A DNA stretch of 62,024 nt from Pseudomonadota bacterium (GCA_021814605.1 JAKAIB010000002.1:1-62024), one strand, 5' to 3'. Counted from the stretch's first letter, positions 209-30,309 are shown. Program-made: numbers and translations. Notes: generated by a model from the letters alone, not told the origin.

Positions 209-1357
209 TCACCTGCGCGGCAAGGGAGTAGCGACTTGCCGTCCTGTCCTCATATCGATATTTCCTGAGAATACCACATGTCGTCCGGATGGAGGGTAGA
301 ATGGATAATACGCGCCGCGAAAGTCTAGATAATTGTCCCGGACGGCGACTCCGTCAAGCACGTTTCCTGTGGACACCCCAATCGCAACGGAGCAAGACAT
401 GCTAATTTTTGGTCCAGGCGCTATTATTGTATTTTTTTCCACCACCGTGTTGATGATAGACGAAGAGTGCGCACCTTCCTGCGCTGCGACTTGAATTCCT
501 TGCATGCCATTTACTTCTCCGTCGTCCGGTGGTTGATAAATAGTGTTGAATGCGATGACTGAATTATCCGCTCTGCTGCCAACGAACTGAACAAAATCGG
601 GGTGCGACCCCACAGCGTGCCCCATACTCACCACCAAATTGTACTTTACCGTCGGTGATATCGTGCCATTACTGAAATCAATAGCGTCACTTGGTGCATC
701 AATCAATAAATTATAAATTGCAACAAATTTTCCGGACCCATTGAAATTAATGAGTGCCCAAACCGTATCCGAATTTCCGTTGGCGGTTGTGGACCCCCCA
801 TCAAACCAGCTATACGTGATCGTTAGACTGCCAGCACCGGCCTCGGCGTTAATCGGAACGACGTTGTTAACACCGACAACGAATTTCGAATTCGACACTA
901 CTGTATCGCTGACACCCGAATGAATATATATTCCGTAACCCCCGTGAAGCGAAAAATCGTAGCCGTCCAGTGTCACATTATCTTTTTGGATGCGGATCAA
1001 ATGATTCCCGGGGTCGATCGCCGTGCCAGCGACGGATAAGGTGAGCGGGTCCTTAAGACGCACACCGCTGTGGACGCCGACAGCATAGTCAACTCCCGCG
1101 ACTTTCCACGGAGGCCTGGCAGCATAATGTCGTAACAATTCACCGAGTTGGGGGGAACCGGCGGGTGCATTCGTGAGTCCGTCGTCATAAGCAATCGTTA
1201 CCTCAGCCGAACCGACGGGGTTCGACGCCGCACACGATGCAAGCACAATGCCCGACCCCAGGGCCGCCTCGACCGAAGCCGAGGCTCCGATATCGCCGAG
1301 CCGGGAGACCCACAACCATGCCTTCCGCGCAACTTCTAATCCCGGCATCTGCCTCAT
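209..1357 (-). CDS. Exported parallel beta-helix (pectate-lyase-like fold) protein, possibly a lipoprotein or polysaccharide-binding/lyase protein
   Basis: 382-aa ORF with Asn/Ile/Val-rich beta-helix-like repeats (NVTLDGYDFS, NSVIAFNTI, NTVVEKNTI, VAVRDNYLD). Lipobox-like LASC near the N-terminus. AAGGAG RBS, so the start may be the ATG at 1348. Markedly AT-rich. Confidence 0.55.
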   Translation of the reverse strand: MRQMPGLEVARKAWLWVSRLGDIGASASVEAALGSGIVLASCAASNPVGSAEVTIAYDDGLTNAPAGSPQLGELLRHYAARPPWKVAGVDYAVGVHSGVRLKDPLTLSVAGTAIDPGNHLIRIQKDNVTLDGYDFSLHGGYGIYIHSGVSDTVVSNSKFVVGVNNVVPINAEAGAGSLTITYSWFDGGSTTANGNSDTVWALINFNGSGKFVAIYNLLIDAPSDAIDFSNGTISPTVKYNLVVSMGHAVGSHPDFVQFVGSRADNSVIAFNTIYQPPDDGEVNGMQGIQVAAQEGAHSSSIINTVVEKNTIIAPGPKISMSCSVAIGVSTGNVLDGVAVRDNYLDFRGAYYPFYPPSGRHVVFSGNIDMRTGRQVATPLPRR

Positions 1358-1502
1358 TCTCCTTTATTGTCCTCGTATTGGGCACGCGACGACACCCCGA
1401 CTGGCGCCGACACGCTGCGGATTCTTCACGTCGGCAGGGCCGACGTCGATTGTGGCTCACCCGCCGTTGCGCTGGCGCGTTACGTTCTCGCCACAGCGGC
1501 GC

Positions 1503-2828
1503 TCAGTCGCTGAACTCGTTGCCAACGACATCCGACGCCACCTCGGTGTTCACGTGCCCCAACTCCCCAAGATGCGCCCGGACACCCACCAGTAATCCCA
1601 CCAGGATCCATGTCGTCCCCCACAGATCCACGGTGAACCCCATGAAGATGATCAGGAAGATGATGATCCCGAGTATCGTGCCCAGCTTCGCCTCGGCATC
1701 CGACAGGCACACGCTCGGTCCCGACGTGGGCAGCGAGCATGAGCCGATCATGGAAAGCCCGGTCAGGATCGCGCACGGAATCCCATAATCCATCGCTAGG
1801 ACCAGCCAAAGCGAATCTACCGACCCTCCGTAGTCGTAGCTGCCGTCAACAGCGCCGAAATACGGGCTCTGCACGACGGCAGGCCCTATCACGTTCCAAA
1901 CATACAGCCGAAAATACGCAGTCTGCGGATCGATAGTAAGATAGTCGAATAGGTGTCCGAATGGCGAATTGGTGGATTCGATCAGGACCACTGCGCCAAG
2001 CATCGGCGGCAACGAAAGCAACAGCCACTTGTGGGGAACCTCCTTGAAAAGACGGCTGTAGAACAGCAGCGCAATCCCGATTGCAAGGCATTGCTGGGGG
2101 GCCGAGGAGAACGCGATCACGACGCCCAGGCCGGACATGACCGCGCAGACTCGTCCGAATCTGCTAATCGCGGAAACGCTAATAAGAAAGCCGAGCGCGC
2201 AGACGAACCCTAGCAGAATCGGATGCTCTATTGGCCCGGCCGCGCGGAGGAATCCGAACCGGTACCCATCCGCCACATTCCAGGTCTTCTGATACCCGGT
2301 GATCTGGCCGGCAACTTCACGCGTGACATACCGGCCGGTAACCGTGTCGAGGAGCGCATCGGCAACGACGAAGGCAATCACAACGCAGAGCAGCTCCACG
2401 AACGCGATCGCCTCTCCGCGGCCCGAAAGCAGCGCGCGCGTCGTCAGATAAGCCATGAGATATTCGAGAACGATTGGCCCCGAATGGAAAACGGTATTCG
2501 CCACGCCGTGTGTGACCGCCGGTCCCAGGAACATCCAGAACCCGCTCAGTGGAACAAAAATGTCCGATGCGACGAATCGATAGTTCCCCTGGCTTATCTT
2601 AGCGACGAACCGCACCGCCACGAAGGGCACGAAGACGAGGAACAGCAGTCTCGTAACCGTCAGCCGCAAGCTGAAGACGAAGAACGAGAAGGCTTCCGGA
2701 AGGAACAAAGTCAGCAGGATCAGCTTCAGTGCAGTTGACAGCTTCGCCTGCGCGGCACTATCGTCCACAGGCGCGCTCTCGAAATCCGCGTTACTGGCGT
2801 CGTTGAGCCACATCGGCGTCTGCGTCAT
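1503..2828 (-). CDS. O-antigen ligase/Wzy-like polysaccharide polymerase
   Basis: About 10-12 hydrophobic segments. RAAGPIEHPILLG, TAYFRLYVW and SVDSLWL motifs are typical of the Wzy/WaaL family. Lies within the EPS cluster. Confidence 0.75.
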   Translation of the reverse strand: MTQTPMWLNDASNADFESAPVDDSAAQAKLSTALKLILLTLFLPEAFSFFVFSLRLTVTRLLFLVFVPFVAVRFVAKISQGNYRFVASDIFVPLSGFWMFLGPAVTHGVANTVFHSGPIVLEYLMAYLTTRALLSGRGEAIAFVELLCVVIAFVVADALLDTVTGRYVTREVAGQITGYQKTWNVADGYRFGFLRAAGPIEHPILLGFVCALGFLISVSAISRFGRVCAVMSGLGVVIAFSSAPQQCLAIGIALLFYSRLFKEVPHKWLLLSLPPMLGAVVLIESTNSPFGHLFDYLTIDPQTAYFRLYVWNVIGPAVVQSPYFGAVDGSYDYGGSVDSLWLVLAMDYGIPCAILTGLSMIGSCSLPTSGPSVCLSDAEAKLGTILGIIIFLIIFMGFTVDLWGTTWILVGLLVGVRAHLGELGHVNTEVASDVVGNEFSD

Positions 2829-2913: not shown

Positions 2914-3219
2914 CTATTCCCCCATCAACCGCCCCACCAACCGCTCCATCGTCGCCACCGACCGGAACGTCTCGGGCGTGATGTCGGCCTGCGGGATCTC
3001 GATGGTGAATTCGTTCTCCACGGCCAGCATCAGCTTGACCATGTCGAGCGAGGTGAGGCCGACCTCCGCCAGCGTGTCGTCATCATCGAAAGATGGCGTG
3101 ATTGCCTGGGAGGCGAGAATCTCCGTCACCACGGCACGCAGGCGTGCGCGCGTGGAGGTTGCGGCGGGACCGGCATCGGTCAGCAGGGCAAGGCCATCGG
3201 ACTGCATGTGCACGACCAT
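2914..3219 (-). CDS. Phosphopantetheinylated carrier protein (aminoacyl carrier protein of aa:CP ligase type)
   Basis: LAEVGLTSLDMVKLMLAVENEFTIEIPQADITPETF, with a GLTS(Ppant) motif like the cognate carrier proteins of amino acid:CP ligases. Start is uncertain (3219 or 3207). Confidence 0.88.
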   Translation of the reverse strand: MVVHMQSDGLALLTDAGPAATSTRARLRAVVTEILASQAITPSFDDDDTLAEVGLTSLDMVKLMLAVENEFTIEIPQADITPETFRSVATMERLVGRLMGE

Positions 3220-3356
3220 CGATCCTGTGGTTCGCCTGCCGGGCACGGTGCCGTACGGGTATCCCGCCGTCCGCATCCTGGAAGCAATGATTTCATATTA
3301 CGACCTTATCCGCCCTGGAACCCGACCGTCAAGCGTCCCGTGCGCGACGGCGGCTC

Positions 3357-4781
3357 TTATCCCGCTTGCGCCGCCTCCAGCGCCGCGACCAGCCGCATGA
3401 CGTCCTCCTCGCTTGTCCTACCGTGCGTGACGCAGGCGCGGATCACGGGGCGGCCTTCGAAGATCGCGACCGAAATCCATGCGGTGCCGGAGGCCAGCAC
3501 GCGGCGCACGATCGTCTGCGGGTCGGGGGCACCCGCCGGCGGCTCCAGGCACAGCACGGCCAGCGGGGAATCGTTCGCCACGGTCCAACCGCGCCGCTGC
3601 ATCTCCTCGCCCAGCAGGGCGATACGGGCGATCGCCTGCTCGACATGCGCGGCATATCCCTCCCACCCGGCGGCGGCGAGGGCGAGGAACAGGCGCAGAC
3701 CGAGGAAGCGGCGTGACCACTGTACGGTGGTGACATAAGGGTCGAGCGTCGCCGCGTTCGAGGGCATGTAGCCGGTGCTGACCCGGAACGTCTCCGACAG
3801 CACCGCCGGGCGGCGGGTGAGGAACATGCCGCAGCCCATCGTGGTCGCCAGCCATTTGTGGGCGTCGATGGTCAGCGAGTCCGCGAGCGCGAGATCGGCC
3901 AGAATGGCGCGATGACGCCCCGAGGCGATCAGCGCCCCGCCCCAGGCGGCATCGACATGGAACCACAGGCCGACCTGCCGCGCGATCCCGGCGGCCTGGG
4001 CGATCGGGTCGATCATGCCGGCCGCGGTCGTGCCGGCGGTCGCGACCAGCATGACGGGCACGCAGCCCCGCGCGCGATCGGCCACGACGGACTCGGCCAG
4101 CGCGGCGGCATCCATCCGCCCCTGTCCGTCGGTGCGCACCTGGCGCACCGCGTCGCGGCCGATGCCGGCCTGGTGGGCGATCTTGATCCAGGCGTGATGC
4201 GCCTCGTTGGAGATGTAGAACACCGGCGGCCCCGCGAAACCGCGCGCGCCCTGCGCGGCGAAGTCCGCGCAGGCGGCGGTCAGCGCCGAGATCAGCGCCG
4301 TAAAGTTCGCCTCAGCCCCGCCGGTGGTGAAGTGCCCGCCGGACCCGGGCGGCAGGCCGGCGCGCCGGGCGACGGCACCGATCACATGCGCCTCGATCTC
4401 GACCGCCATTGGGGAGGTCGTCCAGGTCGCGAGCTGCGGGTTGAACGCCGCGGCGATGCGGTCGGCGCACTGTGCGGGAAAGCTCGGCGCGGGATTGAAC
4501 AGACCGAAATAGCGGGGATGCGTGATCTGCACGAGGCCGCGTTCCAGCCCGGCGATGGTCCAGGCCAGCAGATCGGACAGCTTGCGCGGCTGCTCGAAAT
4601 CGAAGCCGGCCAGTTCGCGCGCCAGCCCCGCGCGATCGACGCCCGGCACGACCGGCCCGTCGGCGATGCGGCGGTCGAGGCTGGCGAGTTCCTGCGTCAG
4701 CCAGTCCTCGATCGCCAGGCGGGCGTCAGCATCGGGAAACAGCGCCGCGTGGCCGCGAGGTTCGTCCGGGGCGTTCATCAT
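3357..4781 (-). CDS. PLP-dependent group II amino-acid decarboxylase (AADC/DAB-decarboxylase family)
   Basis: HPRYFGLF, FTTGGAEAN, ATAGTT, HVDAAWGG and DAHKWL (PLP lysine) motifs. Confidence 0.9.
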   Translation of the reverse strand: MMNAPDEPRGHAALFPDADARLAIEDWLTQELASLDRRIADGPVVPGVDRAGLARELAGFDFEQPRKLSDLLAWTIAGLERGLVQITHPRYFGLFNPAPSFPAQCADRIAAAFNPQLATWTTSPMAVEIEAHVIGAVARRAGLPPGSGGHFTTGGAEANFTALISALTAACADFAAQGARGFAGPPVFYISNEAHHAWIKIAHQAGIGRDAVRQVRTDGQGRMDAAALAESVVADRARGCVPVMLVATAGTTAAGMIDPIAQAAGIARQVGLWFHVDAAWGGALIASGRHRAILADLALADSLTIDAHKWLATTMGCGMFLTRRPAVLSETFRVSTGYMPSNAATLDPYVTTVQWSRRFLGLRLFLALAAAGWEGYAAHVEQAIARIALLGEEMQRRGWTVANDSPLAVLCLEPPAGAPDPQTIVRRVLASGTAWISVAIFEGRPVIRACVTHGRTSEEDVMRLVAALEAAQAG

Positions 4782-4870
4782 GCGCGTCCTTCGATCCGTC
4801 CTGCGGATGAAATCTGGCATCGCGCGGCGCCGTAACAGTAGGATGCCGCGCGTCCGTCGCGAGTCACCGC

Positions 4871-5743
4871 ATGTCCGCTCCGCCCGCCGCCCGCGTGTCG
4901 TGCCGTCAGATCGCGGCGGCGGATCTGCCGGCGGTGGCCGATCTGCTGCATGCCGGCTTTCCGAAGCGGCCGCGCAGCTACTGGGTCGAAGGCCTGCAGC
5001 GCCTGACCCTCAACCACGCGCCGGAAGGCTATCCCAAATACGGCTACCTGCTGCAATCGGGCGGAGAGGTCGTCGGCGTGCTGCTGCTCGTCTTCTCCGC
5101 ACGCGACGACGGATCGGGGCCTGTGCTGCGCGGCAATGTGTCGAGTTGGCATGTGCGACCAGCGTTCCGCGCCTACGCACCGCTGCTCGTGCTGCGCGCC
5201 ATCCGCCACGCGGCCGCGCGCTATCTGAACGTCTCTCCCGCGCCCGAAACGCTGCCCATCATCACGGCGCAGGGCTTCCGACAGTTCAGCAGAGGCGTGT
5301 TCGCGGCGCTGCCGATGCTCGCGCGCAGCGGCACCGCGCGGCTGCACGCGAACGCCGCGCAATGGCGGGCAGCCGACATCCCCCACGCGGACCTGCGCCT
5401 GCTCTCCGATCACGCGGCGTTCGGCTGCCTCAGCCTGTGGTGCGAAACAAGGCAGGGCGGGCAACCCCTGATCTTCCGGCGGCGCCGGATCAAACCAGGC
5501 GGAATCCCCTGTGCGCACCTCATCTATTGCCGCTCGCTGGAAGACCTCGAAGCGGTTGCGGGACCCGTGGGCCGCTATCTTGCCCTGCGCGGGATGCCAC
5601 TGATGCTGGTTGCCTGCGACCGGGCACTGCGCGGGGTGCCGGGTCGGTTGTTTCCCGACAAGCTGCCGATGTACTTCAAGGGTGCCGAGTCGCCGCGACA
5701 GGGCGACCTGAGCTACACCGAGGCGGCGCTGCTCGGCATGTGA
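4871..5743 (+). CDS. Putative GNAT-fold acyl-CoA/acyl-carrier acyltransferase
   Basis: 290 aa. YGYLLQSGGEVVGVLLL and NVSSWHVRPAFR resemble GNAT motif A. High-GC codon usage supports a real gene. Confidence 0.55.
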   Translation: MSAPPAARVSCRQIAAADLPAVADLLHAGFPKRPRSYWVEGLQRLTLNHAPEGYPKYGYLLQSGGEVVGVLLLVFSARDDGSGPVLRGNVSSWHVRPAFRAYAPLLVLRAIRHAAARYLNVSPAPETLPIITAQGFRQFSRGVFAALPMLARSGTARLHANAAQWRAADIPHADLRLLSDHAAFGCLSLWCETRQGGQPLIFRRRRIKPGGIPCAHLIYCRSLEDLEAVAGPVGRYLALRGMPLMLVACDRALRGVPGRLFPDKLPMYFKGAESPRQGDLSYTEAALLGM

Positions 5744-5775: not shown

Positions 5776-7026
5776 CTACCACGCGCCGCGCGTGTCGATC
5801 ACGAACTTGTCCTTGAGCACGTCGCGATCAACCTGCAGGAAGCTCATGTGATCGACCAGCAGCAGCACGACATTGGCGCGCTCCATCGCCAGGTCGAAGT
5901 CGTGCAGCGCGAGGCCGCACTCCTCCAGCTCCCGCGGCAGGCGCGAGATGTGCGGCTCGACCACCAGCAGCTCGCCCACGCCCTCATGCGCCAGCCGGCG
6001 CACGATCTCCACCGCCGGGCTCTCGCGCAGGTCGTCCACGTCCTTCTTGTAGGAAAGCCCCAGGCAGGCGATCACCGGCCGCTTCAGCGCCGCGGCGCGC
6101 TCGCGCACCTTGGCGCAGACGAAGGCCGGCTTGGCGTCGTTGATCAGGCGCGCGGCACGGATCAGCTTCGCCTCGTCCGGATTGGTGGCCACGATGAACC
6201 ACGGATCGACCGCGATGCAATGCCCGCCAACGCCGGGGCCGGGCGAGAGGATGTTGACGCGCGGATGCAGGTTGGCGACCGCGATCAGCTCCCACACGTT
6301 CACCTTGAGCCGGTCGCAGATGAAGCTCAACTCGTTGGCGAAGGCGATGTTGACGTCGCGATAGGCGTTCTCCGTCAACTTGGCGAGCTCGGCAGTGCGC
6401 GCGTTGGTGACCCGGCACTCGCCGCGCACCACGATACGATACAGACTCAATGCCCGCTGCGCGCATTTGCGCGTCATGCCGCCGATGACGCGGGCGTTGT
6501 TGACCACTTCCTCCAGGATGCGACCGGGCAGCACGCGCTCCGGGCAGTGCGCCACCTGCACCGCCGCCATCTCGCCCTTCTGTTGCGGGAAGGTCAGATC
6601 GGGGCGCAGTTCCGCCAGGATCGCCGCCATGCGCTCGGTCGTGCCGACGGGCGAGGTGGATTCCAGGATCACCAGATTGCCTGCCGCCAGCACCGGGGCA
6701 ACGGCGCGCGCGGCAGCCTCGACATAGGTGAGGTCAGGCTGCGCGCCCTCGCCATGGCCGCGCAGCGGCGTGGGCACGGCGATGATGAACGCCTCGGCCG
6801 GTTCGACGTCGGTGGTCGCGCGCAGCTTGCCGCCCTCCACCACGCGGCGCACCAGCGCGTCGAGATTGGGTTCGCCGAAATGCGGACGGCCCTGGTTGAT
6901 GCTGGCGACGACATCGGGGTTCACGTCGATGCCGACGACTTCGACGCCGTTCTCGGCGAACACGGCGGCGGTCGGCAGGCCGATATAGCCGAGGCCGACG
7001 ACGGCGATGCGGCTGAAACTATGCAC
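5776..7026 (-). CDS. wecC: UDP-N-acetyl-D-mannosamine dehydrogenase
   Basis: GLGYIGLPTA, HCPERVLPG, KLTENAYRDVNIAFANE, GVGGHCIAVDPWF and DDLRESP motifs. Adjacent to wecB. Confidence 0.95.
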   Translation of the reverse strand: MHSFSRIAVVGLGYIGLPTAAVFAENGVEVVGIDVNPDVVASINQGRPHFGEPNLDALVRRVVEGGKLRATTDVEPAEAFIIAVPTPLRGHGEGAQPDLTYVEAAARAVAPVLAAGNLVILESTSPVGTTERMAAILAELRPDLTFPQQKGEMAAVQVAHCPERVLPGRILEEVVNNARVIGGMTRKCAQRALSLYRIVVRGECRVTNARTAELAKLTENAYRDVNIAFANELSFICDRLKVNVWELIAVANLHPRVNILSPGPGVGGHCIAVDPWFIVATNPDEAKLIRAARLINDAKPAFVCAKVRERAAALKRPVIACLGLSYKKDVDDLRESPAVEIVRRLAHEGVGELLVVEPHISRLPRELEECGLALHDFDLAMERANVVLLLVDHMSFLQVDRDVLKDKFVIDTRGAW

Positions 7027-8137
7027 GGCGTATGGCCTCCACGATGCGGGCGGCGGCGTGCCCGTCGCCGTATGGGTTGTGCGCGAAGCTCATGGCGTCG
7101 TACGCGGCGCGGTCATCCAGCAGTCGGTTGGCCGCGCTAACGAGGCGTTCGGTGTCGGTGCCGACCAGCTTCACCGTGCCGGCCTCGACCGCCTCCGGCC
7201 GCTCGGTGGTGTCGCGCGTGACCAGCACCGGCTTGCCGAGCGACGGCGCCTCCTCCTGCACGCCGCCGGAATCGGTCACGATCAGCGCGGCGTGGCGCAT
7301 CAGATGGATGAAGGGCAGGTAGTCGAGCGGCGCGATCAAGTGGATCGCGGAATGGCTGCCCAGCACCGCGCGCGCCGCCTGCTGCACATTGGGATTGAGG
7401 TGGACGGGATAGACCACCTCGACATCGCCGCGATCCGCCAGGCGCCGCAGGCCGCTCGCCACCCGCTCCAGCCCGCCGCCGAAATTCTCGCGGCGATGGC
7501 CGGTGACGAGGATCAGCCGCTTGTCCGGATCCAGGCGTGGCAGGGTCGCGTCGATCGCCGCGGTGCGTGCCGGGTCGGCGTCGAGAATGGCGACGGCGTC
7601 GAACAACGCGTCGATCACCGTGTTGCCGGTGACGGTGATGTGCGACGCGGACACGCCCTCGCGCAGCAGATTGTCACGCGACGCCTCGGTCGGCGGGAAA
7701 TGCAGGTCGGTGATCAGCGTGGTGATGCGCCGGTTCATCTCCTCCGGCCAGGGCGAGAACACGTTGCCGGTGCGCAGGCCCGCCTCGACATGGCCGACCG
7801 GAATCTTCGCGTAGAACGCGGCAAGCGAGGCCGCCATGGTGGTGGTGGTGTCACCCTGCACCAGGATGCGATCGGGCCGCGTGCTGTCCAGCACCTCGCC
7901 GAGCCGCTCCAGCACCGCGGTGGTGATGTAGGTTAGTCCCTGCCCGGCGCGCATCAGGTCCAGATCCAGGTCAGGCCGGATGCCGAACAGCTCAAGCACC
8001 TGGTCGAGCATCTGGCGATGCTGGCCGGTCACGCAAACCAGCGACTCAACCCCCGGCGTATCGGCAAGACGGCGCAGCACCGGCGCCATCTTGATCGCCT
8101 CCGGTCGCGTGCCGAACACCGTCAGAATGCGCATCAC
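7019..8137 (-). CDS. wecB: UDP-N-acetylglucosamine 2-epimerase (non-hydrolysing)
   Basis: FGTRPEAIKMAP, TGQHRQML, HVEAGLRT, SPWPEEMNR, DSGGVQEEAP and NPYGDG motifs. Confidence 0.97.
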   Translation of the reverse strand: MMRILTVFGTRPEAIKMAPVLRRLADTPGVESLVCVTGQHRQMLDQVLELFGIRPDLDLDLMRAGQGLTYITTAVLERLGEVLDSTRPDRILVQGDTTTTMAASLAAFYAKIPVGHVEAGLRTGNVFSPWPEEMNRRITTLITDLHFPPTEASRDNLLREGVSASHITVTGNTVIDALFDAVAILDADPARTAAIDATLPRLDPDKRLILVTGHRRENFGGGLERVASGLRRLADRGDVEVVYPVHLNPNVQQAARAVLGSHSAIHLIAPLDYLPFIHLMRHAALIVTDSGGVQEEAPSLGKPVLVTRDTTERPEAVEAGTVKLVGTDTERLVSAANRLLDDRAAYDAMSFAHNPYGDGHAAARIVEAIRRA

Positions 8138-8200: not shown

Positions 8201-9112
8201 TCATCTGTGTCGGGCCACGCGGCGCCGGAGCCAGCGCTTGAGCGCCCTCGGTCCGCATTGCCAATTATATCCACCTCGCATCTTAAGCCAGAATTCCAGG
8301 TCCCAGTCGGCGAGATCCACCCGCACGCGCCCGCGCAGAAACGATGCGTCAGCGGGGTCGATCATTCGCGGAACGGTATGGTAAGCGAACCGGAACGCCG
8401 CCGTCCGGCAGAGTTCGACGGTGCCGTCGTCGTATTCGCCATACGGAAAGGAGAACATGGTCACGTCGTGCCCCAACAGGCTCGTCAGGGCCGATTTCGA
8501 TCCGCCGATTTCCGCGTCGGCGCTGGCGTGGTCGAGTGCGGGCAGGCGGGGATGCGTGACGCTGTGCGCGCCGATGGACACAAGCTCCCGCGGCAGGGTG
8601 CGCAGGATCTCGCCGTTCGCCACCGTCTCGAACTGGTCCGTGTCGGCGGCTTCCATCTGCCAGCCCGGCTGCCCGCCCAGCATACCGGAAGGCGTGAAAA
8701 TCGTTGCCGTCATGCCGCGCACGGCAAGCTCGGGCAACGCGTTGTCGATGACGCTGACATAGGCATCGTCGAAGGTGATGGCGACGAGCAGCCGTCCCGG
8801 GGCGACGGTGCCGCAGAAATCGGCGGCGACGACCGCATCCGCGCCGGCCCGGATGACCTCCAGCTGCCGCGCGAAACGGCGCCGCTGCGCGGCCGGAACC
8901 GAGTGATAGTAGAGGATCACCAGCCGCGCCCGGCCGAAGCCGAGCAGGCACGCCACGCGGTTCGCCGTCGTCCAGGCGGACAGATAGACGAGGCCGATGC
9001 AGGCATAGAGGCAGCGTCGGCCGGTGACCAGCGCCGTGCCCCAGCGCCCGCGCGGCGCCGGCACGGCATCCTCACGCGGCGTCGCCGCGACCTCGTTGAC
9101 CAGCGCACTCAT
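8201..9112 (-). CDS. Polysaccharide deacetylase (CE4/NodB family)
   Basis: ILYYHSV, ITFDDAY, GAHSVTHP and FSFPYG motifs. Confidence 0.9.
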   Translation of the reverse strand: MSALVNEVAATPREDAVPAPRGRWGTALVTGRRCLYACIGLVYLSAWTTANRVACLLGFGRARLVILYYHSVPAAQRRRFARQLEVIRAGADAVVAADFCGTVAPGRLLVAITFDDAYVSVIDNALPELAVRGMTATIFTPSGMLGGQPGWQMEAADTDQFETVANGEILRTLPRELVSIGAHSVTHPRLPALDHASADAEIGGSKSALTSLLGHDVTMFSFPYGEYDDGTVELCRTAAFRFAYHTVPRMIDPADASFLRGRVRVDLADWDLEFWLKMRGGYNWQCGPRALKRWLRRRVARHR

Positions 9113-22574: not shown

Positions 22575-23915
22575 GTGCAGCACGAGACGATCGCGATCCA
22601 TGGTGGCTACGATGTCGATCCCACGACCCATGCCGTCGCCGTCCCGATCTACCAGACCGCCGCCTACGCCTTCGACAGTGCCGAGCACGGGGCGGCGCTG
22701 TTCAACCTCGAGGTCGAGGGGCACCGCTACGGCCGGATCAGCAATCCGACCACCGCGGTACTCGAACGCCGGGTCGCCGAACTTGAGGGCGGGATCGAGG
22801 CGCTCTGCGTCAGCACCGGGCAAGCCGCGCTGCACTATGCCATCGCCAACCTGACCGAGCCGGGCAGCAACATCGTCTCCGTGCCGCAGCTCTACGGCAC
22901 CACGCACACCCTGTTCGCCCATTATCTCCGTCGCCTCGGCATCACCACGCGTTTCGCCGAGAGCGATGCCCCGGCGGCGCTGGAGCGGCTGATCGACGAC
23001 GATACCCGCGCGTTGTACTGCGAGAGTGTCGGCAACCCCGCCGGCAACATGTGCGACATCGAGGCCCTGGCCCGCGCCGCACACCGCCACGGCGTGCCGC
23101 TGGTCGTGGACAACACCGTCGCAACCCCGATCCTGCTGCGCCCAATCGAGCACGGTGCGGACGTCGTCGTGCACTCGCTGACCAAGTTCATGGGCGGCCA
23201 CGGCACCACACTCGGCGGCGCCATCGTCGACTCCGGTCGCTTCGACTGGTCCCGCCACCCGCGCCGCTTCGCGATGTTCAACCAGCCTGACGAGTCCTAT
23301 CACGGTCTGGTCTATACGGAGCATTTTGGCGCGGCCGCGTATATCGCGCGCTGCCGCAGCGTGTACATGCGCGTAACCGGCGCCACCCTCTCGCCGCTCA
23401 GCGCTTTCCTGCTGCTGCAGGGTATCGAGACGGTGGCGCTGCGCGTCGAGCGGCATGTCGAGAACGCGCGCAAGGTCGCCACTTTCCTGCGCCGCGACCC
23501 GCGCGTGGCCTGGGTCAACTATGTGGGCTTCCCCGACAACCCGTATCACGCGCTGGCACAGAAATATCTCGGCGGCCGCGCCTGCTCGCTGATCACTTTC
23601 GGCGCGCGCGGCGGCTACGACGCGGCGGTGCGCTTCTATGACGCGCTCAAGCTGGTCAAGCGGCTGGTCAATCTGGGCGACGCGAAGTCGCTCGCCTGCC
23701 ATCCGGCGTCCACGACGCACCGGCAGATGACGCCGGAGGAACAGACAAAAGCCGGCGTCACGCCCGAGATGATCCGCCTGAGCGTCGGCATCGAACATAT
23801 CGACGACATCATCGCCGATCTTGACCAGGCGCTCGGCCCGACCGGGCACGTCACGACGGCGCGGACAGCGGTGCCGGAGATGGCCGATGCACTCCAGGAG
23901 GGGCGACGTGGCTGA
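22575..23915 (+). CDS. metY: O-acylhomoserine aminocarboxypropyltransferase/sulfhydrylase
   Basis: [39 protein letters not shown] (PLP Lys), [17 protein letters not shown] and IRLSVGIE motifs. GTG start at 22575. Confidence 0.93.
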
Positions 23916-24927
23916 CTTGCCGGCTGAGACACAAGCGGGTCCGCGCAGCGGCAGAGTATCCCCCTCACTCGTCATCGGGCTGGTCAACAGCATGCCTGGC
24001 GAGGCGCTGGAACACACCGAACGCCAGTTCCGCGGAATCCTCGGCGCCGCAGCGCGCAACGTCAGCGTGCGCATCCGGCTGTTCTCGCTTGACCCGCCCA
24101 CACAGGCGGCCGCTTCGCGCTACGAGCATGCGGCGGCGATCGACCCCGACGACATCGACGGCCTGATCGTCACCGGCATGCCGCCGCGCGCGGCGTCGCT
24201 GCACGACGAGCCATGCTGGAAGGCGCTTACGGCCCTGGTCGATCTCGCGGCGGAGCGCGGCATTCCCACCGTCTGGTCGTGCCTCGCCGCACATGCGGCG
24301 GTGCTCTACCTTGACGGCATCGAACGTCGCCCGCTGGGTGAGAAGCTCTCCGGCCTCTATGCCTGCACGCGCACGCGCGACGATCATCCGATGCTCGCGC
24401 GCCTGCCGCGTCGCTGGCGCGTGCCGCACTCGCGCTACAATGAGCTCTCCGCCGATGCCCTGACCGCGTGTGGCTACGACATCCTGTCGTCCTCGCCCGA
24501 GGCCGGTGTGGACCTGTTCGCCCGGCGCGCCGGCGCGCTGTTCCTGTTCTGCCAGGGCCATCCCGAATACGACGCGGCCGCCCTGCTGCGCGAATACCGC
24601 CGCGACGTGCGGCAGTTCCTCATCGGCGCGCGCGAGAGCTACCCGGCCATGCCGCACGGCTATTTCAGCCCCGGCGTGTCGGAATCGCTCGCGGCGTTCC
24701 GCGCCGAGGCGCTGCGCGCCCGCGCGCCCGAGACGATGACGCACTTCCCGTTTGCCGTCTGCGAGGCCGATCTCGCGCATTCCTGGCGGAATCTGGCGCA
24801 TGGCCTCTATGCCAACTGGCTGGCCTACCTGCTCGCGGGGCGGACGCGAAGCGGCGCGGCCCTGGCCGATGCGGCTATGCGGCGCGCGTCCGCAGATCCT
24901 GCGGCCGCAGCGATACCATCCGCCTGA
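23908..24927 (+). CDS. metA: Homoserine O-acyltransferase (MetA/HTS family, atypical)
   Basis: VNSMP..TERQF, DGLIVTG, WSCLAAHAA (catalytic Cys), PHSRYN, QGHPEYD and EYRRD motifs. GTG start overlaps the end of metY. Confidence 0.85.
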   Translation: MADLPAETQAGPRSGRVSPSLVIGLVNSMPGEALEHTERQFRGILGAAARNVSVRIRLFSLDPPTQAAASRYEHAAAIDPDDIDGLIVTGMPPRAASLHDEPCWKALTALVDLAAERGIPTVWSCLAAHAAVLYLDGIERRPLGEKLSGLYACTRTRDDHPMLARLPRRWRVPHSRYNELSADALTACGYDILSSSPEAGVDLFARRAGALFLFCQGHPEYDAAALLREYRRDVRQFLIGARESYPAMPHGYFSPGVSESLAAFRAEALRARAPETMTHFPFAVCEADLAHSWRNLAHGLYANWLAYLLAGRTRSGAALADAAMRRASADPAAAAIPSA

Positions 24928-26023
24928 ACTCCAGCCGGTCGGTCAGCTCGGGATAGGCGGACTGCCCGCCGAACGACCACAGCAGCCAGCCGAACTCGTA
25001 GCTGCGCATCTCCTGCGTCAGGCACAGCGTCGCCGGGTCGGTGGTCCAGGCGTTCGCGCCGGTGCCGGCGACGAGGGAAGCGCGCAGCAGACGGCCGATG
25101 CGCCGGCCCTGCACGCCACGCCGCGCCTGCGACCGATGGATCAGCGACAGCGCCGGTACCAGCATCGAGGTCCGCATCTGGTTGGCACCGAAGATCCACT
25201 CGAAGCCGCGCAGCATCGCCGCGCGCGCGCCGGGCACGCCGTGACGGATGGCATGATGCAAGAAGGCCGGCGCCATGCCGTGCTGATGCACCGAATAGAC
25301 CTCGTACGCCTCGATGACGCGGTCCGCGGCGGGCAGGTAAAACCAGGGCCATTCGCCAAGCGGCCCCTGCAACGCGATCAGCTTCGCCGCGATCGCGTTC
25401 GCCGCGGCGATCGAGCGCGCATCGCCGGCGAGTTCGCCGTGATGATACAGCGCCAGCGCGGCATAGACCTGGGTGGCGAAGGTCGCGAAATGCCGCCGCG
25501 GCCCCTGCGTCGCGTCGCGGAACAGGGCATGCGGGCCGCTGAAGCGGTCCAGCAGCACCCGGCTCAGCTTCTCCGCCAGCGGACGCCAGGACGGGTCGCG
25601 GCGAGCCTGCGCGGCGACCCCCGACAACGACAGGCCAGCGTCCTGCGCTGTCCAGCGCACGGCGGGCTCGATATCGGCGGCGAGCACGCGCAGCCGGTCG
25701 GCGACCGCGCCGGGAACATCGAGATCCAGTTCCGCCGCGGCCCACAGCGCCATGCCCGGCGCCCCGTTGCGCACGCTGTGCCGTGGCAGCGCGTCGCACA
25801 GCGCGGCAAACAGTGCCGCCACATCGTACGGTTCGCCGGCCAGCTCCGCCCGCACCGTGCTCAGGCCGAGCAGGACATTCAGCGAGTAGTAGAGATCGCT
25901 GTGCGGCACCGACTCGTTTTCCGGCTGACGTCCGTCGAGGTGGTATTTGTGCGACCACATGCCGCGCTCGGGCATCCAGCAGCGTCGCAGTCCGGCGAGG
26001 GCATAGGCGCTCAGGGGTGTCAT
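24875..26023 (-). CDS. Hypothetical alpha/alpha-barrel-like protein in the EPS cluster
   Basis: 382 aa with high-GC codon usage and conserved-looking motifs (FATFATQVY, LQGPLGEWPWFY, YEVYSVHQHGMAP, EMRSYEFGWLL). Overlaps the metA 3' end convergently by 53 bp. Confidence 0.6.
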   Translation of the reverse strand: MTPLSAYALAGLRRCWMPERGMWSHKYHLDGRQPENESVPHSDLYYSLNVLLGLSTVRAELAGEPYDVAALFAALCDALPRHSVRNGAPGMALWAAAELDLDVPGAVADRLRVLAADIEPAVRWTAQDAGLSLSGVAAQARRDPSWRPLAEKLSRVLLDRFSGPHALFRDATQGPRRHFATFATQVYAALALYHHGELAGDARSIAAANAIAAKLIALQGPLGEWPWFYLPAADRVIEAYEVYSVHQHGMAPAFLHHAIRHGVPGARAAMLRGFEWIFGANQMRTSMLVPALSLIHRSQARRGVQGRRIGRLLRASLVAGTGANAWTTDPATLCLTQEMRSYEFGWLLWSFGGQSAYPELTDRLEFRRMVSLRPQDLRTRAA

Positions 26024-26155
26024 GTTGTCGCGACCTCACGCTCTGCCGACCCGATCGGATCGGATGTTGCAATTAACCCGACAATGGGTGCGTAATCAAG
26101 ACATCTTCGTACCCGACACGGCTTGCCCGCAGCAACCCTCGAACGGCAACACGCA

Positions 26156-27964
26156 ATGATGGATGGCCCGCCGAAGTCCGCCCCGCCCGCCGGCGCCGGC
26201 AGCGACGCGCTCCGCGCCTGGACCCGCGCGCTCGCGCGCGTGGCCCCTTTCGCCAGGGGCGAGGGCGCCCCCTTCCCCACCCTGCTGCCCGAACTCGCGA
26301 CACGGTTCGCGACGCGGCCGGCGCTGCTGTCGGACGGCGTCGCACTCAGCTACCGCGATCTCGCCGGGCGCGCCGGCCGTTATGCCGACTGGGCGGTGCG
26401 GGAGGGCGTCGGTGCGGGCGACGTGGTCTGCCTGCTGCTGGCCAACTGTCCCGACTACGTCGCGATCTGGCTCGGCATCACGTCAGTGCGCGGCGTGGTC
26501 GCGCTGCTCAACACCAACCTCGCGGGCGACGCGCTCGCGCACGCGATCGCCGCCGTCGCGCCGACGCACATCATCGTCGGCGACGGCTTCGCCACCCGCA
26601 TCACCACCATCCGCGACCGGCTGCCGACCGACTTGCAATGCTGGACCCACGGCTCCGACGCCGCCGGCCCACGCATCGACCAGGTCATCGGCTCGCTGCC
26701 CCCTGCCCCGGCCGCGGCGATTGCGGCACGCGCGCCCGCGCTCGGCGACACCGCGCTCTACATCTATACCTCCGGCACCACCGGCCTGCCGAAAGCCGCC
26801 CGCGTCAGCCACCGCCGCGTCATGGAATGGAGCTGCTGGTTCGCCGGCATGATCGACACGCAGCCGGACGACCGGATGTACAACTGCCTGCCGCTCTATC
26901 ACAGCGTCGGCGGCATCGTCGCGGTCGGCGCCATGCTGGTCGGCGGCGGCTCGGTGCTGATCCGGCCGAAATTCTCCGCCAGCCGTTTCTGGGACGAGGT
27001 GACGGAGCACGGCTGCACGGTGTTCCAGTATATCGGCGAGCTGTGCCGCTATCTGCTCGCCACCCCGCCGCACCCGCGCGAGACCGCGCACCGGCTGCGG
27101 CTGGCCTGCGGCAACGGGCTGCGCGGCGATGTGTGGGAAGCCTTCCAGGAGCGTTTCCGCATCCCGCGCATCCTGGAGTTCTATGCGTCCACCGAGGGCA
27201 ATCTCTCGCTCTACAACTGCACCGGCCGGCCGGGCGCGATCGGACACATCCCGGCCTTTCTCGCACATCGCTTTCCCGTCGCGCTCATCCGCTGCGACGC
27301 CGAGAGCGGCGCGCCGCTGCGCGGTGCCGACGGGCTATGCATCGCCTGCGGCCCCGACGAGGCCGGCGAGGCGCTCGGCCGGATCGGCGCGGCCGGCGGG
27401 CACGGCCGCCCGTTCGAGGGCTACACCGACGACGCCGCGTCGGAGGCGAAGATCCTGCGCGACGTGCTCGCCCCCGGCGACGCCTGGTTCCGCACCGGCG
27501 ACCTGATGCGCCGCGATGCCGCCGGCTTCTACTATTTCGTCGATCGTCTCGGCGACACTTTCCGCTGGAAAGGCGAGAACGTCGCGACCGAAGAGGTTGC
27601 CCAGGCGCTGCGCCGCTGCCCCGGCGTGACCGACGCCGTGGTCTATGGCGTCGCCATTCCCGGCATGGAAGGGCGCGCGGGGATGGCCGCGATCACGGTC
27701 GCGGACGGCTTCGACCTGCCGACACTGCACCATCACGTCGCGACGCACCTGCCGGACTACGCCCGCCCGCTGTTCCTGCGCCTCTGTCGCGCCATCGACA
27801 TCACCGGCACGTTCAAGCCGATGACGGCGGCGTTGGCGCGCGAGGGATTTGATCCACACGGCGTCGGCGACGCGCTCCATTTCGATGACCGCGCGCGCGG
27901 CGCCTTCGTCCCGCTGGATGCCACGCTGCACGCACGCATCTGCAACGCTGAACTGAAGCTGTAA
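26156..27964 (+). CDS. Long-chain acyl-CoA synthetase (FATP/VLACS type)
   Basis: YIYTSGTTGLPKAA, LPLYHS, FQYIGELCRYLL, EFYASTEG and WFRTGDL..FVDRLGDTFRWKGENV motifs. Confidence 0.93.
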   Translation: MMDGPPKSAPPAGAGSDALRAWTRALARVAPFARGEGAPFPTLLPELATRFATRPALLSDGVALSYRDLAGRAGRYADWAVREGVGAGDVVCLLLANCPDYVAIWLGITSVRGVVALLNTNLAGDALAHAIAAVAPTHIIVGDGFATRITTIRDRLPTDLQCWTHGSDAAGPRIDQVIGSLPPAPAAAIAARAPALGDTALYIYTSGTTGLPKAARVSHRRVMEWSCWFAGMIDTQPDDRMYNCLPLYHSVGGIVAVGAMLVGGGSVLIRPKFSASRFWDEVTEHGCTVFQYIGELCRYLLATPPHPRETAHRLRLACGNGLRGDVWEAFQERFRIPRILEFYASTEGNLSLYNCTGRPGAIGHIPAFLAHRFPVALIRCDAESGAPLRGADGLCIACGPDEAGEALGRIGAAGGHGRPFEGYTDDAASEAKILRDVLAPGDAWFRTGDLMRRDAAGFYYFVDRLGDTFRWKGENVATEEVAQALRRCPGVTDAVVYGVAIPGMEGRAGMAAITVADGFDLPTLHHHVATHLPDYARPLFLRLCRAIDITGTFKPMTAALAREGFDPHGVGDALHFDDRARGAFVPLDATLHARICNAELKL

Positions 27965-27970: not shown

Positions 27971-28705
27971 CTACGCGGTGTTGCCGGCGTCCACCGTCAG
28001 CACGGTGCCGGTGACGTTGCGCGCCGCATCGCTGAGGAAATACGCGACCGCGTTGGCGATGTCGTCCGGCTCGGCCATGCGGTGCAGCGCGCTGCGCCGC
28101 GCGATCTGCGCGCGCTGGCCGGGATTGAGTTCGTGCGTCATCTCCGTCTCGACGAAGCCCGGTGCCACGGCATTGACGGTGATGTCGAGCCGGCCGAGTT
28201 CACGCGCCAGCGACCGGGTGAACCCGATCAACGCCGCCTTGGTCGCGCTGTAGGCCGACAAGCCGCTGTAGCCGGTCGCGGCCACGATCGAGCTGACATT
28301 GATGATGCGGTTGCCGCCCGAGGTCATCATCGCGCGCACGACGTATTTCGTCAGCACCATCGGCGAGAGCAGGTTGAGCCGCACCAGCCGCTCGATCTGC
28401 GCGTCGTGCATGGTGGCGAGAATGCCGCTCGATCCGATACCGGCGTTGTTGACCAGCGCGTGCAGCGCCCCGAACTCCTCGTGCAGCCGCTTCACCAGTG
28501 CGGGGATCTCGCCGATCTCGGCGAGGTCGCAGGCACGGAACCGGATCGCGCCATGGCCCGCCGCTTCGGCCTCGCGCGACGCTGCCGCCAGTCCCTCGTT
28601 GTCGCGGCGGGCCAGCGCGATCACCTGATGGCCCGACGCCGCAATCACGCGCGCCATCGCCAGGCCCAGCCCGCGGCTGCCGCCGGTGACGATGACGTTA
28701 CGCAC
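27971..28705 (-). CDS. SDR oxidoreductase, 3-oxoacyl-ACP reductase (FabG)-like
   Basis: TGGSRGLG, VNNAG, YSATK and VNAVAPGFVETEM motifs. Confidence 0.92.
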   Translation of the reverse strand: MRNVIVTGGSRGLGLAMARVIAASGHQVIALARRDNEGLAAASREAEAAGHGAIRFRACDLAEIGEIPALVKRLHEEFGALHALVNNAGIGSSGILATMHDAQIERLVRLNLLSPMVLTKYVVRAMMTSGGNRIINVSSIVAATGYSGLSAYSATKAALIGFTRSLARELGRLDITVNAVAPGFVETEMTHELNPGQRAQIARRSALHRMAEPDDIANAVAYFLSDAARNVTGTVLTVDAGNTA

Positions 28706-30074
28706 GCGCGCGCCGCAGCTTGCCCGATGGGGTCATGTCGAGCGACGGCACGACACGCACGGTCGCGGGGACCTTGTGCGCAGCCAGCGTGTCACGGCAG
28801 AGGTCGAGGATCTCGGCCTCGACCTGCTTGCCCGCGGCCGCCGGATCGGCCAGCACGATGTCGGCCACCACGATCGCGCCGATGATCGGGCTGCGCCGCG
28901 CCTTCACCAGCGACATCTCGACGCCGGGATGACGGTTGATGACGGCCTCGACTTCCTCGGGATGTACCTTCAGCCCGCCGACATTGATCACGCCGTCGCG
29001 GCGGCCGGCGAAGTGGTAGCGGTCCTCGCGCAACTCGACGAGGTCCTTGGTATCGACGAAGCCCTCCGCATCCGCGATCGGCTCCATGCCCTCGCCGAGA
29101 TAGCGGCTCGCCGCGCGCGGCGAGCGGATGCGCAGCGTATCGTCCTGCACGCGCAGGCTGATGCCGTTGCGGTCCTCGCTGAGCAGGGAAGCGGGAAATC
29201 CGGCGCGGCCGTCAGCAATCTCGAACGCAACGCCGGCTTCGGTGGAGGCGAAGGCGTGCGCCACCCGCGCGGTCGGATAGGTCTGGCGCAGCTTGTCGAG
29301 GATCGCCTGATCAGCCATCTCGCCCGACAGCCGCACGTCTTGCGGTGCGATCGCGCGCGCCGCGGGACTGAGCAGCGCGCGCCGCCAGTGTGTCGGCGTG
29401 CCGGAGATGAACGACACGCCGGCCGCTGCAGCGCGCGCGAGAAAGTCGCTTACCGGCTCTTCGGAGCCCGACAGTACCATCGAACCGCCGCCGATCAGCG
29501 CGCGCAGCAGGATCTGCAACCCGCCATAGCGGCGGATGTCATAGAACGTGCTCCAGACCTTCTCGCCGCTGGCGTTCGTCGTGCGCGCGATCGCGCCGGT
29601 CAGGCTGTGCAGCGAATGGATCGCCATTTTCGGCGGGCCGGTGGTGCCGGAGGTGAACAGCGCCCATTCGCTCGCCAGGCGCGGCACATCGGCCGGCCCG
29701 GCGACCGGCACGGGCACGCCGGGGACGATGCAGGGTGCTTGCAGATCGGGTATCGCCTGATCGGACACCACGATCCGCGCGTCGGCCGTCGCCATCACGC
29801 CGGGGAGGTGCTGCGGCCCGAGATCGGGCGGACATAGGACAATCCGCCGCGCCAGCCCGTCCAGTTCCAGCAGCGCCAGCGTGGTTGCAAGCTGCGTGCC
29901 GGTGGTGAGCACGACGTTCTCGCCGTGCAGCCGCTCGCGCTGCGCCCCGAAGATCGTCGCACCGGTCAGGCTGTCGAGCCCGACGCGCGCATGTTCATCG
30001 AGCAGGAACCGCCGCGCGAGCGGCCCCGCCGCCGCCGTCAACTCCCACAGCGACGCGTGGTCAGGCGGCGACAT
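28698..30074 (-). CDS. ANL-family adenylation enzyme (acyl-ACP/CoA ligase)
   Basis: FTSGTTGPPK, AFASTEAG, GRRDGVINVGGLKVHPEEVE and TPSGK motifs. Coupled to the ACP and the SDR by overlapping ends. Confidence 0.9.
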   Translation of the reverse strand: MSPPDHASLWELTAAAGPLARRFLLDEHARVGLDSLTGATIFGAQRERLHGENVVLTTGTQLATTLALLELDGLARRIVLCPPDLGPQHLPGVMATADARIVVSDQAIPDLQAPCIVPGVPVPVAGPADVPRLASEWALFTSGTTGPPKMAIHSLHSLTGAIARTTNASGEKVWSTFYDIRRYGGLQILLRALIGGGSMVLSGSEEPVSDFLARAAAAGVSFISGTPTHWRRALLSPAARAIAPQDVRLSGEMADQAILDKLRQTYPTARVAHAFASTEAGVAFEIADGRAGFPASLLSEDRNGISLRVQDDTLRIRSPRAASRYLGEGMEPIADAEGFVDTKDLVELREDRYHFAGRRDGVINVGGLKVHPEEVEAVINRHPGVEMSLVKARRSPIIGAIVVADIVLADPAAAGKQVEAEILDLCRDTLAAHKVPATVRVVPSLDMTPSGKLRRARA

Positions 30075-30309
30075 GTTGCTCGTAGAGTGCGACGAACTCG
30101 CCGAACGTCGCCGGCACGTCGATGTCCTCGGCGGCGCTGAACGGATCGGTGCCCAGCTTCGCTTCCAGGTTGGCGACGATGATCGCCAGGCACAGGGAAT
30201 CGATGCCCGAATCGAGCAGTGGCAGGTCGTCGGCAAGCGATGCGAGCTGGCGGTTCTGCTCGCGCGCCACGTCGCTGAACACGGTGAGCACGGTTTCACG
30301 GACTGACAT
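30061..30309 (-). CDS. Acyl carrier protein
   Basis: About 82-aa acidic protein with the LLDSGIDSLCLA Ppant-Ser motif. RBS GGGGGA upstream. Confidence 0.88.
   Translation of the reverse strand: MSVRETVLTVFSDVAREQNRQLASLADDLPLLDSGIDSLCLAIIVANLEAKLGTDPFSAAEDIDVPATFGEFVALYEQHVAA

Follow-up and report, generated by a model that had tools for sequence, protein, structure and literature searches.

An amino acid:carrier-protein ligase module interleaved with a Wzx/Wzy polysaccharide locus

Results

A carrier-protein gene set lies within a polysaccharide gene cluster

We analyzed a stretch of 62,024 nucleotides assigned to a Pseudomonadota bacterium (JAKAIB010000002.1, assembly GCA_021814605.1), here called the window, and give all positions over its whole length. 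It holds a 31-kb polysaccharide gene cluster that is interleaved with a complete carrier-protein gene set, including an amino acid:carrier-protein ligase. The analysis establishes what the genes are, that they are interleaved, that the carrier-protein module is conserved and that polysaccharide genes are in excess around ligases of this family. An initial annotation of the window had proposed that carrier-bound units are transferred onto the glycan. We put at about even chances the specific form that we favor, a carrier-fed cytoplasmic N-acylation of a repeat-unit amino sugar with a glycine-derived group, before flipping and polymerization.

The polysaccharide genes have the composition of a Wzx/Wzy locus, with a priming glycosyltransferase, further glycosyltransferases, Wzx, Wzy and Wzc all present (Table 1). 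Among them lie the ligase, an acyl-CoA dehydrogenase (ACAD)-fold flavoenzyme, two carrier proteins (CP1 and CP2), two ANL enzymes, a short-chain dehydrogenase (SDR), a GNAT-like transferase, an HSL-family hydrolase and a pyridoxal phosphate (PLP)-dependent decarboxylase. Every polysaccharide and carrier-pathway gene listed in the initial annotation was recovered at the place given for it, using Pfam, family profiles, PDB matches and fold searches. The ACAD, ligase, hydrolase, deacetylase, wecB and wecC genes form the closely spaced same-strand run that it described, with gaps of approximately 35, 45, 42, 66 and −8 bp, and the CP1 gene is indeed directly upstream of the Wzy-like gene, at 85 bp. 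Neither a ketosynthase nor a condensation domain, both reported absent, was found among the 39 open reading frames (ORFs) of 1–38 kb given to Pfam. Outside the earlier list are genes for MetY, MetA, an (alpha/alpha)6 protein, a 394-residue protein and a 226-residue membrane protein.

Two independent metagenome contigs share the gene order: L142, which matches the window from the GT2 gene to the GNAT gene at 78–96% identity, and L203, which matches from the methyltransferase to the PLP decarboxylase at 64–89% identity. Thus, the arrangement is not an assembly artefact. A wza profile found no match on the contig, and the locus begins at the contig end. Scanning 1–20 kb for promoters and terminators gave no excess over shuffles (4 vs 2.7; 11 vs 9.4).

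Identity of the ligase, flavoenzyme and transferase

The ligase is a stand-alone class II catalytic core of about 315 residues that resembles seryl-tRNA synthetase (SerRS) and passes the NF005479 profile. Alignment shows Cys134, Glu179 and Cys282, which correspond to the Cys/Glu/Cys metal-site residues of amino acid:carrier-protein ligases. By these sequence features we class the protein as an amino acid:carrier-protein ligase of the Bll0957 type. Its Ala284 is equivalent to Ala281 of Bll0957, an alanine that presumably marks glycine specificity, and the amino acid loaded by the window ligase is therefore predicted to be glycine. The cognate carrier, CP1, has the phosphopantetheine-bearing serine (GLTSLDM) and is encoded approximately 7 kb from the ligase.

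The ACAD-fold protein has Ile and Ser at what we take to be the classical catalytic Glu positions, those of the medium- and long-chain dehydrogenases MCAD and LCAD (alignments to 3pfd and 7p98, read by eye). None of the six most frequent variants of each motif among its homologues contains Glu, and the six most frequent variants have His260 (among the homologues listed, 121 of 169 close and 18 of 32 distant ones). Its best PDB match is the amino-sugar N-oxygenase/nitrososynthase DnmZ (E 2e-13), by a marginal difference from a dehydrogenase (9e-12). Pfam detected no gene in the locus for a flavin reductase, the partner of the N-oxygenases DnmZ, ORF36 and KijD3.

The GNAT-like gene gave no family match by sequence. 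Its structural model (pLDDT 92.8) matched 3ddd and Eis in Foldseek (E of about 1e-8, probability 1.0, TM 0.55 to 3ddd), and structure comparison (VIA) gave a Z of 14.4 over 247 residues with an rmsd of 5.2. The model predicts with high confidence that this protein folds as a tandem GNAT. A hydropathy scan revealed no hydrophobic segments in the GNAT, HSL and ligase proteins, and Pfam and family profiles found no MBOAT, AT3 or DltD family member among the ORFs of 1–38 kb, of which one product, the 226-residue membrane protein, fell into no family. The transfer enzymes thus look cytoplasmic, and the locus lacks the MBOAT/AT3 membrane transferase that the likeness to Dlt D-alanylation, drawn in the initial annotation, would lead one to expect.

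The module is conserved and has a sister type

We compared the 80 closest ligase loci in GTDB, which are the best 80 of at least 509 confirmed matches and mostly from Bradyrhizobium. Homologues of the ACAD-fold protein are encoded in 79 of these loci, of CP1 in 75, GNAT in 66, MetY in 45, MetA in 41, HSL in 29 and CP2 and SDR in 13 each, and CP2 is accompanied by ANL2 and SDR in 13. CP1, the ACAD-fold enzyme, the tandem GNAT, HSL, the CP2-ANL2-SDR trio, a FATP-like long-chain acyl-CoA synthetase (30 of 157 loci), MetY/MetA and the PLP decarboxylase form a conserved module, which we call type B. Wider samples contained the ligase in 19/301 and 41/401 genomes, and a class-wide sample in only 7/381 with no new type-B locus. 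All 10 type-B genomes of the 401-genome sample encode close ANL2 and GNAT orthologues, as does only one other genome; these genomes belong to two families.

A sister type, type A (n = 35), has genes for DUF1839 (33 loci), GH2 (31) and a double alpha/beta hydrolase (23), none of which occurs in any of the 157 type-B loci; tblastn found neither DUF1839 nor GH2 in the window's own genome (G000). The two types form separate clades with a support of 100 in a quick ACAD tree, in which 63 of 145 rows were left after thinning. The position of Bll0957 Ala281 is Ala in all 150 aligned type-B ligases (11 more lack coverage) and Gly in 35/35 of type A.

Type-B loci of at least 8 kb hold either the PLP decarboxylase (10 of 116) or genes for a branched-chain aminotransferase (BCAT) and/or a thiamine pyrophosphate (TPP) enzyme (39 of 116), and these never share a locus. 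This mutual exclusion suggests two routes to one intermediate.

Further genes recur beside these ligases. Phosphorylase and IF-2B family genes flank 47–48 of the 80 closest ligase loci, in Bradyrhizobium (e.g., L068:7059-7934, L034:5773-6879), and probably represent methionine salvage. A polysaccharide deacetylase gene lies 3' of metA in 13 of the 80, and a small SnoaL-like protein follows the HSL hydrolase in several type-B loci (L029, L042, L206). We also observed a third, distant ligase type (L100, L128-L140; 27–34% identity) that lacks the ACAD gene. In three of its loci an MBOAT gene adjoins the ligase gene, and several hold a distant GNAT relative; its design is nearer to that of Dlt.

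Linkage to polysaccharide genes is recurrent but confined to a minority

Linkage of homologous ligases to polysaccharide genes was one of the checks named in the initial annotation. We compared 20-kb segments around 37 of 59 sampled ligase loci (those on contigs of at least 110 kb; 22 were dropped) with a distant segment of the same contig. A Wzx/Wzy core gene was present in 11/37 ligase segments and 3/37 controls (Fisher p 0.035; paired comparison 10 vs 2, p 0.039), values whose significance is overstated as related genomes are not independent. In this test some profile seeds were taken from test loci, the Wzc cut of 200 was chosen after seeing the matches and three borderline test loci were left out of the count. 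Because the profiles for Wzx and Wzy had low sensitivity (1 and 2 matches), membrane proteins were rescanned with Pfam, and Wzx-like genes without a Pfam match in L114 and L120 were left uncounted. In 8/45 genomes the ligase had a wza or priming glycosyltransferase gene no more than 25 kb away, against at most 2.8 expected, in a count made by eye that leaves out five rows.

Linked type-B loci occupy about six separate places in the quick ACAD tree: the window clade, in which 5/5 are linked, L002, L189-191, L006, L055 (by a weak wza match) and L116/L117/L126. The module of G616 and G518 is in two halves that flank wzc and GT4 genes, and in L004, L144 and L197 wzc is the gene immediately before the ACAD gene. 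Relatives of module parts also occur in glycan loci. Nonulosonic-acid (pseudaminic-type) clusters in L268 and L269 hold distant CP2-ANL2-SDR trios (32–46% identity), with acyltransferase genes as neighbors. Among 18 further loci with GNAT relatives, six have clear polysaccharide-synthesis genes (L287, L288, L295, L297, L299, L302) and several have carrier and AMP-ligase genes; others (e.g., L285, L290, L293) have neither. The window Wzy showed no detectable relationship to the Wzy-like gene of L117.

For type A, a cassette was found in a cluster of bec/bep gene order (L101 with L277). The assignment of a ligase within the bec cluster rests on gene order, with gene content compared through the table of PMC3584217. 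In that 18-gene biofilm exopolysaccharide cluster, becG encodes an ACAD-domain protein, and its transposon mutant was biofilm-reduced, with polar effects possible (PMC5507470).

Two gene arrangements stand apart from these counts. In L103, L104 and L121, Wzx and the type-A double alpha/beta hydrolase share one reading frame of approximately 1100 residues (near 15100-18600 in L103/L104), a direct tie between the type-A cassette and polymer export. A GINT1_N/GH43-like gene lies between the module SDR and wzc in L117:13811-15388 and L126:4309-6120.

Several observations weigh against a glycan product, beginning with the overstated significance noted above. All eight genomes linked by wza or a priming glycosyltransferase are type A, five of them from one family, and the corresponding number for type B is 0/10. 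The profiles used detected no polysaccharide gene in four more type-A loci. Of the 80 closest genome loci, no more than 4 had a Wzx/Wzy core gene (4/73 of those of at least 15 kb), as did only 4/31 metagenome type-B loci of at least 8 kb. In the Bradyrhizobium-like genome G354 the module is split, with the ligase at 0.60 Mb, MetA at 1.32 Mb and ANL2 at 2.02 Mb; the nearest wza is approximately 130 kb from the ligase, and none of the three sites adjoins polysaccharide genes. The Bep polysaccharide is reported as Gal:Glc:Man 2:1:1 after extraction with 0.3 M NaOH, and a word search of the available text did not find "substituent" (PMC7084887), although such extraction would strip esters and probably not amides. 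Finally, the co-conserved long-chain acyl-CoA ligase points to a lipid product. Linkage of the module to Wzx/Wzy genes is therefore recurrent but restricted to a minority of loci; the majority of homologous cassettes, those of Bradyrhizobium among them, are unlinked, and the generality implied by the initial annotation did not hold. The absence of linkage in other genomes, which that annotation had named as a refutation, thus applies to most of the loci, though not to every one.

Three other explanations bear on these data. Firstly, and as the main rival, the module may make an amino-lipid or another small acylated product such as an N-acyl-glycine or an acylated amine. A fatty acid activated by the long-chain ligase would be joined by the GNAT either to glycyl-CP1 or to what the decarboxylase produces, and HSL would release the result; polysaccharide genes would lie nearby since both serve the envelope or biofilm. 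We regard this as possible but somewhat doubtful. It accounts for the FATP-like synthetase and for the lack of polysaccharide genes near most type-B loci, and the combination of PLP decarboxylase, ACAD-family oxygenase, SerRS relative and GNAT-fold transferase resembles the valanimycin set. It sits less well with interleaving that recurs across separate lineages, with the GNAT and trio relatives found in glycan loci that lack the ligase and with clustered neighbors among which neither an exporter nor a dedicated regulator is conserved.

Secondly, the module could acylate another envelope glycan (lipopolysaccharide core or O-antigen, a unipolar adhesin, a protein-linked glycan), encoded anywhere, and not the neighboring Wzx/Wzy polymer. 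Such a target would explain the intact but unlinked module of Bradyrhizobium-like genomes, given that ANL2 and GNAT orthologues are kept in 10/10 type-B genomes, and would fit the trios in nonulosonic-acid clusters. The proposal is improbable in light of the run that joins the window ligase to the deacetylase, wecB and wecC, and of the position of wzc directly before the ACAD gene in three loci.

Thirdly, a polysaccharide hot spot may have received, by chance, a mobile metabolic module that has no functional tie to it, as the minority status of linked loci and the 3/37 control segments with such genes might allow. This we consider very unlikely, since the genes are interleaved beyond mere adjacency, their order is kept in L142 and L203, and independent arrangements are found in other lineages. 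A link to hopanoid-lipid A, considered in view of the host range, was not retained. Modification of the polysaccharide encoded alongside remains the best-supported reading, through the tight interleaving, the order in L142 and L203, the excess over control segments, the roughly six lineages and the GNAT and trio relatives in glycan loci.

Genes of the locus and origin of the contig

Table 1. Features of the locus, with positions in the 62,024-nt window.
Feature	Position	Strand	Evidence
Beta-helix (polysaccharide lyase/hydrolase-like) protein, probable	209..1357	-	Pfam Beta_helix E 0.048, below cut-off; weak
Wzy/O-antigen-ligase-like membrane protein	1503..2828	-	PF04932 on homologues up to 60% identical
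CP1, aminoacyl carrier protein (GLTSLDM)	2914..3276	-	PF00550; best PDB match 4h2s_C E 7e-16
Group II PLP-dependent decarboxylase	3357..4820	-	PF00282 E 7e-55; PDB 4rit E 3e-52
Tandem-GNAT acyltransferase, predicted transfer enzyme	4871..5743	+	Structure model and fold search
WecC, UDP-ManNAc dehydrogenase	5776..7026	-	NF008286 627 bits, cut-off 459
WecB, UDP-GlcNAc 2-epimerase	7019..8137	-	TIGR00236 498 bits, cut-off 210
CE4/NodB-type polysaccharide deacetylase	8201..9112	-	PF01522 E 6e-19
HSL-family alpha/beta hydrolase (HGGG, GDSAGG)	9155..10132	-	PF07859 E 7e-69
Amino acid:[carrier protein] ligase, Bll0957 type (by sequence)	10178..11125	-	NF005479 463.9 bits, cut-off 357; PDB 3mey E 3e-144
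ACAD-fold flavoenzyme without canonical catalytic Glu	11149..12387	-	PF02771/PF00441; best PDB match DnmZ E 2e-13
394-residue (scanned) protein, twin-Arg-like N-terminus, possibly carbohydrate-active	12665..13924	-	Homologue domains
SAM-dependent methyltransferase	13894..14727	-	PF13489 E 6e-17
GT26 WecG/TagA/CpsF glycosyltransferase	14830..15720	-	PF03808 E 5e-61
Wzc polysaccharide co-polymerase/tyrosine kinase	15668..17947	-	Wzz, GNVR, AAA_31; TIGR01005 below cut-off
WcaJ-type priming glycosyltransferase	17928..19529	-	TIGR03023 415 bits, cut-off 410.75
GT2 glycosyltransferase	19768..20808	+	PF00535 E 1e-20
Wzx flippase	20818..22284	-	PF13440 E 2e-25
MetY-type O-acylhomoserine sulfhydrylase	22575..23915	+	TIGR01326 610 bits, cut-off 495
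MetA-like homoserine O-acyltransferase	23908..24927	+	PF04204 E 2e-55
(alpha/alpha)6 protein, GH88/GH76/AGE-epimerase-like fold	24875..26023	-	Model pLDDT 95; Foldseek 3wiw E 2e-6, TM 0.58
FATP-like long-chain acyl-CoA synthetase	26123..27964	+	NF006134 717 bits, cut-off 625
FabG-like SDR	27971..28705	-	PF00106; 8-bp overlap with ANL2
ANL2, short ANL adenylating enzyme (conserved YDIRRYGGLQ)	28698..30074	-	PF00501/PF13193
CP2, second carrier protein (GIDSLCL)	30061..30309	-	PF00550 21.1 bits, cut-off 20.8
226-residue membrane protein	30400..31080	-	5 hydrophobic segments; no Pfam match

Some of these assignments draw on more than a profile match. The Wzy-like protein has 7 predicted hydrophobic segments and no Pfam match of its own, and the true start of CP1 is probably near 3219. 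The 394-residue protein matched nothing in Pfam or the PDB; its 19 scanned homologues gave one match each to CBM_4_9, F5/8, PEP-CTERM and a sub-threshold GH76. The (alpha/alpha)6 protein has 597 homologues, and its fold also resembles cellobiose epimerases. A relative of the 226-residue membrane protein (46% identity) adjoins the module in L002 too. The beta-helix gene has a low third-position GC content (GC3 = 0.54).

Directly after the locus, at 31113-34303, lie glmS-glmU, which would provide UDP-GlcNAc for WecB. A direct repeat with an 86-bp period occupies 1-190 at the contig start and is possibly an assembly-end artefact. Farther along, reading by eye indicated a Gly-rich 750-residue protein with a Hint-like domain at its end (51585-53837) and a further small carrier-protein-like ORF with a GLDSLD motif, beside speE/speD-like genes (57732-58073).

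The contig is probably mis-binned and alphaproteobacterial, Acetobacteraceae-like. Its GlmU is only 46–48% identical to that of two genomes labeled as the same genus, whereas the RecA of the bin, encoded on a different contig, matches theirs at 96%. Most close homologues of the GNAT, Wzy and (alpha/alpha)6 proteins that carry a taxon name come from Acetobacteraceae. Counting against mis-binning, this contig holds the bin's sole copies of glmU, mfd and recG. With mis-binning, the kinship labels of the genome searches describe the bin and not the contig.

Discussion

The window unites all parts of a Bll0957-type module with a nearly complete polysaccharide pathway, and it offers a candidate transferase, the tandem GNAT, and a candidate acceptor, a de-N-acetylated amino sugar. 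Loading by this ligase family and the roles of WecB, WecC, GT26, WcaJ, Wzx, Wzy and Wzc are known family biochemistry; all chemistry past carrier loading we infer. In the proposed scheme, the ligase would adenylate a small amino acid, glycine, and load it onto the phosphopantetheine of CP1. The ACAD-fold flavoenzyme may then oxidize the CP1-bound glycyl group at N or C-alpha, a role other than that of a classical acyl-CoA dehydrogenase. CP2-ANL2-SDR, perhaps with the long-chain ligase, would supply a second acyl unit, and MetA, MetY and the PLP decarboxylase (elsewhere BCAT and the TPP enzyme) could provide a homoserine- or methionine-derived block. The deacetylase would free the amine of an N-acetyl sugar as acceptor, the HSL enzyme would edit or release thioesters, and the tandem GNAT would move the product onto the amino sugar on the cytoplasmic side. 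WecB, WecC and GT26 would supply and transfer N-acetylmannosaminuronic acid (ManNAcA), with WcaJ priming, Wzx flipping and Wzy polymerizing together with Wzc.

A more elaborate version, which we hold to be a long shot, is a two-carrier, condensation-free line that would place an N-oxidized glycyl group, a lipid chain and a methionine- or homoserine-derived amine onto ManNAcA-containing repeat units. If true, this composite substituent would be new for bacterial polysaccharides, and the resulting exopolysaccharide of Acetobacteraceae, Methylobacterium-like bacteria and others would be amphiphilic or metal-binding. It would also name the product of the structurally best-studied amino acid:carrier-protein ligase.

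The system is not undescribed, as the initial annotation had it. A 2010 note added in proof described SerRS-paralogue neighborhoods with an acyl carrier protein (ACP), a redox enzyme, an uncharacterized gene, a glycosidase and liposaccharide genes, and predicted that an amino acid is ligated to a cell-surface sugar at its amino group; amide formation was assigned to Atu2574, and the aminoacyl group was predicted to be mono-oxygenated (PMC2922099). DUF1839 has been described as papain-like and possibly glycan-processing (PMC10318531). The ligase family loads Gly or Ala (PMC5370406), a 2022 review called the role of these ligases unknown (PMC9437257), and bll0957 and bll0958 are upregulated in a phaR mutant (PMC10888616). 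In the available text of a paper on an R. solanacearum ACP we found no usable link to the module.

A role in glycan aminoacylation is thus already in print for type A, apparently still only as a prediction, and this sole printed glycan prediction that we found concerns the sister cassette with DUF1839. Our searches did not find an earlier account of the whole type-B module in a Wzx/Wzy locus with the GNAT replacing DUF1839, which we regard as new. Beyond PMC2922099 and PMC10318531 we found nothing in print on the type-B module or its glycan link, in a search that mostly excluded subscription literature; type-B neighborhoods may already stand in the gene-neighborhood file of PMC2922099. What the window adds are overlooked partners, namely the second carrier trio, the long-chain ligase, MetA/MetY and the interchangeable decarboxylation routes. 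The concept is not new and the linkage not universal, but the role of the ligase becomes testable in culturable relatives.

Among known systems, the closest is Bradyrhizobium Bll0957 (PDB 3MEY, 4H2S; ACAD gene bll0958), with which the window shares the ligase type, the metal-site residues, the Ala281 equivalent, a carrier that matches the 4H2S carrier best in the PDB and an adjacent ACAD gene. Bradyrhizobium-like genomes have a scattered module away from polysaccharide genes, whereas the window has all parts in one Wzx/Wzy locus and a PLP decarboxylase instead of the BCAT/TPP genes. The Atu2573-type cassette (CP, ACAD, ligase, DUF1839, GH2 and double hydrolase, including the Burkholderiaceae bec/bep-like cluster) shares the core trio, the proposed role and the recurrent Wzx/Wzy linkage. 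It differs in its own clade, Gly at the specificity position and DUF1839, GH2 and double hydrolase, in place of which type B has GNAT, HSL, CP2-ANL2-SDR, FATP and MetA/MetY.

In the Dlt system (DltA-D), D-alanylation of teichoic acids uses an amino acid carried as a phosphopantetheine thioester, and the window likewise has an activated, carrier-borne amino acid for the predicted decoration of a surface polymer. The window, however, uses a class II synthetase core and not an ANL adenylation enzyme, lacks MBOAT and DltD, and has extra redox and acyl-supply enzymes, with transfer predicted to be cytoplasmic. Exosortase-A-associated exopolysaccharide loci also combine a carrier, an adenylating ligase (acyl-CoA ligase TIGR03098) and a PLP decarboxylase (TIGR03099), together with hydrolases (TIGR03100/03101), and one locus of this type, L288, holds a distant relative of the window GNAT and a homologue of the window Wzy. 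These loci have no amino acid:carrier-protein ligase or ACAD and a decarboxylase of another fold, and the window ANL enzymes score far below the TIGR03098 cut-off. For the valanimycin pathway, we take VlmD to be the decarboxylase and VlmH the ACAD-family N-hydroxylase. Similar enzyme types occur together there, with the SerRS paralogue VlmL and the GNAT-fold transferase VlmA (PMC2922099), but that pathway uses seryl-tRNA and not a carrier protein, yields a small molecule and has no glycan genes.

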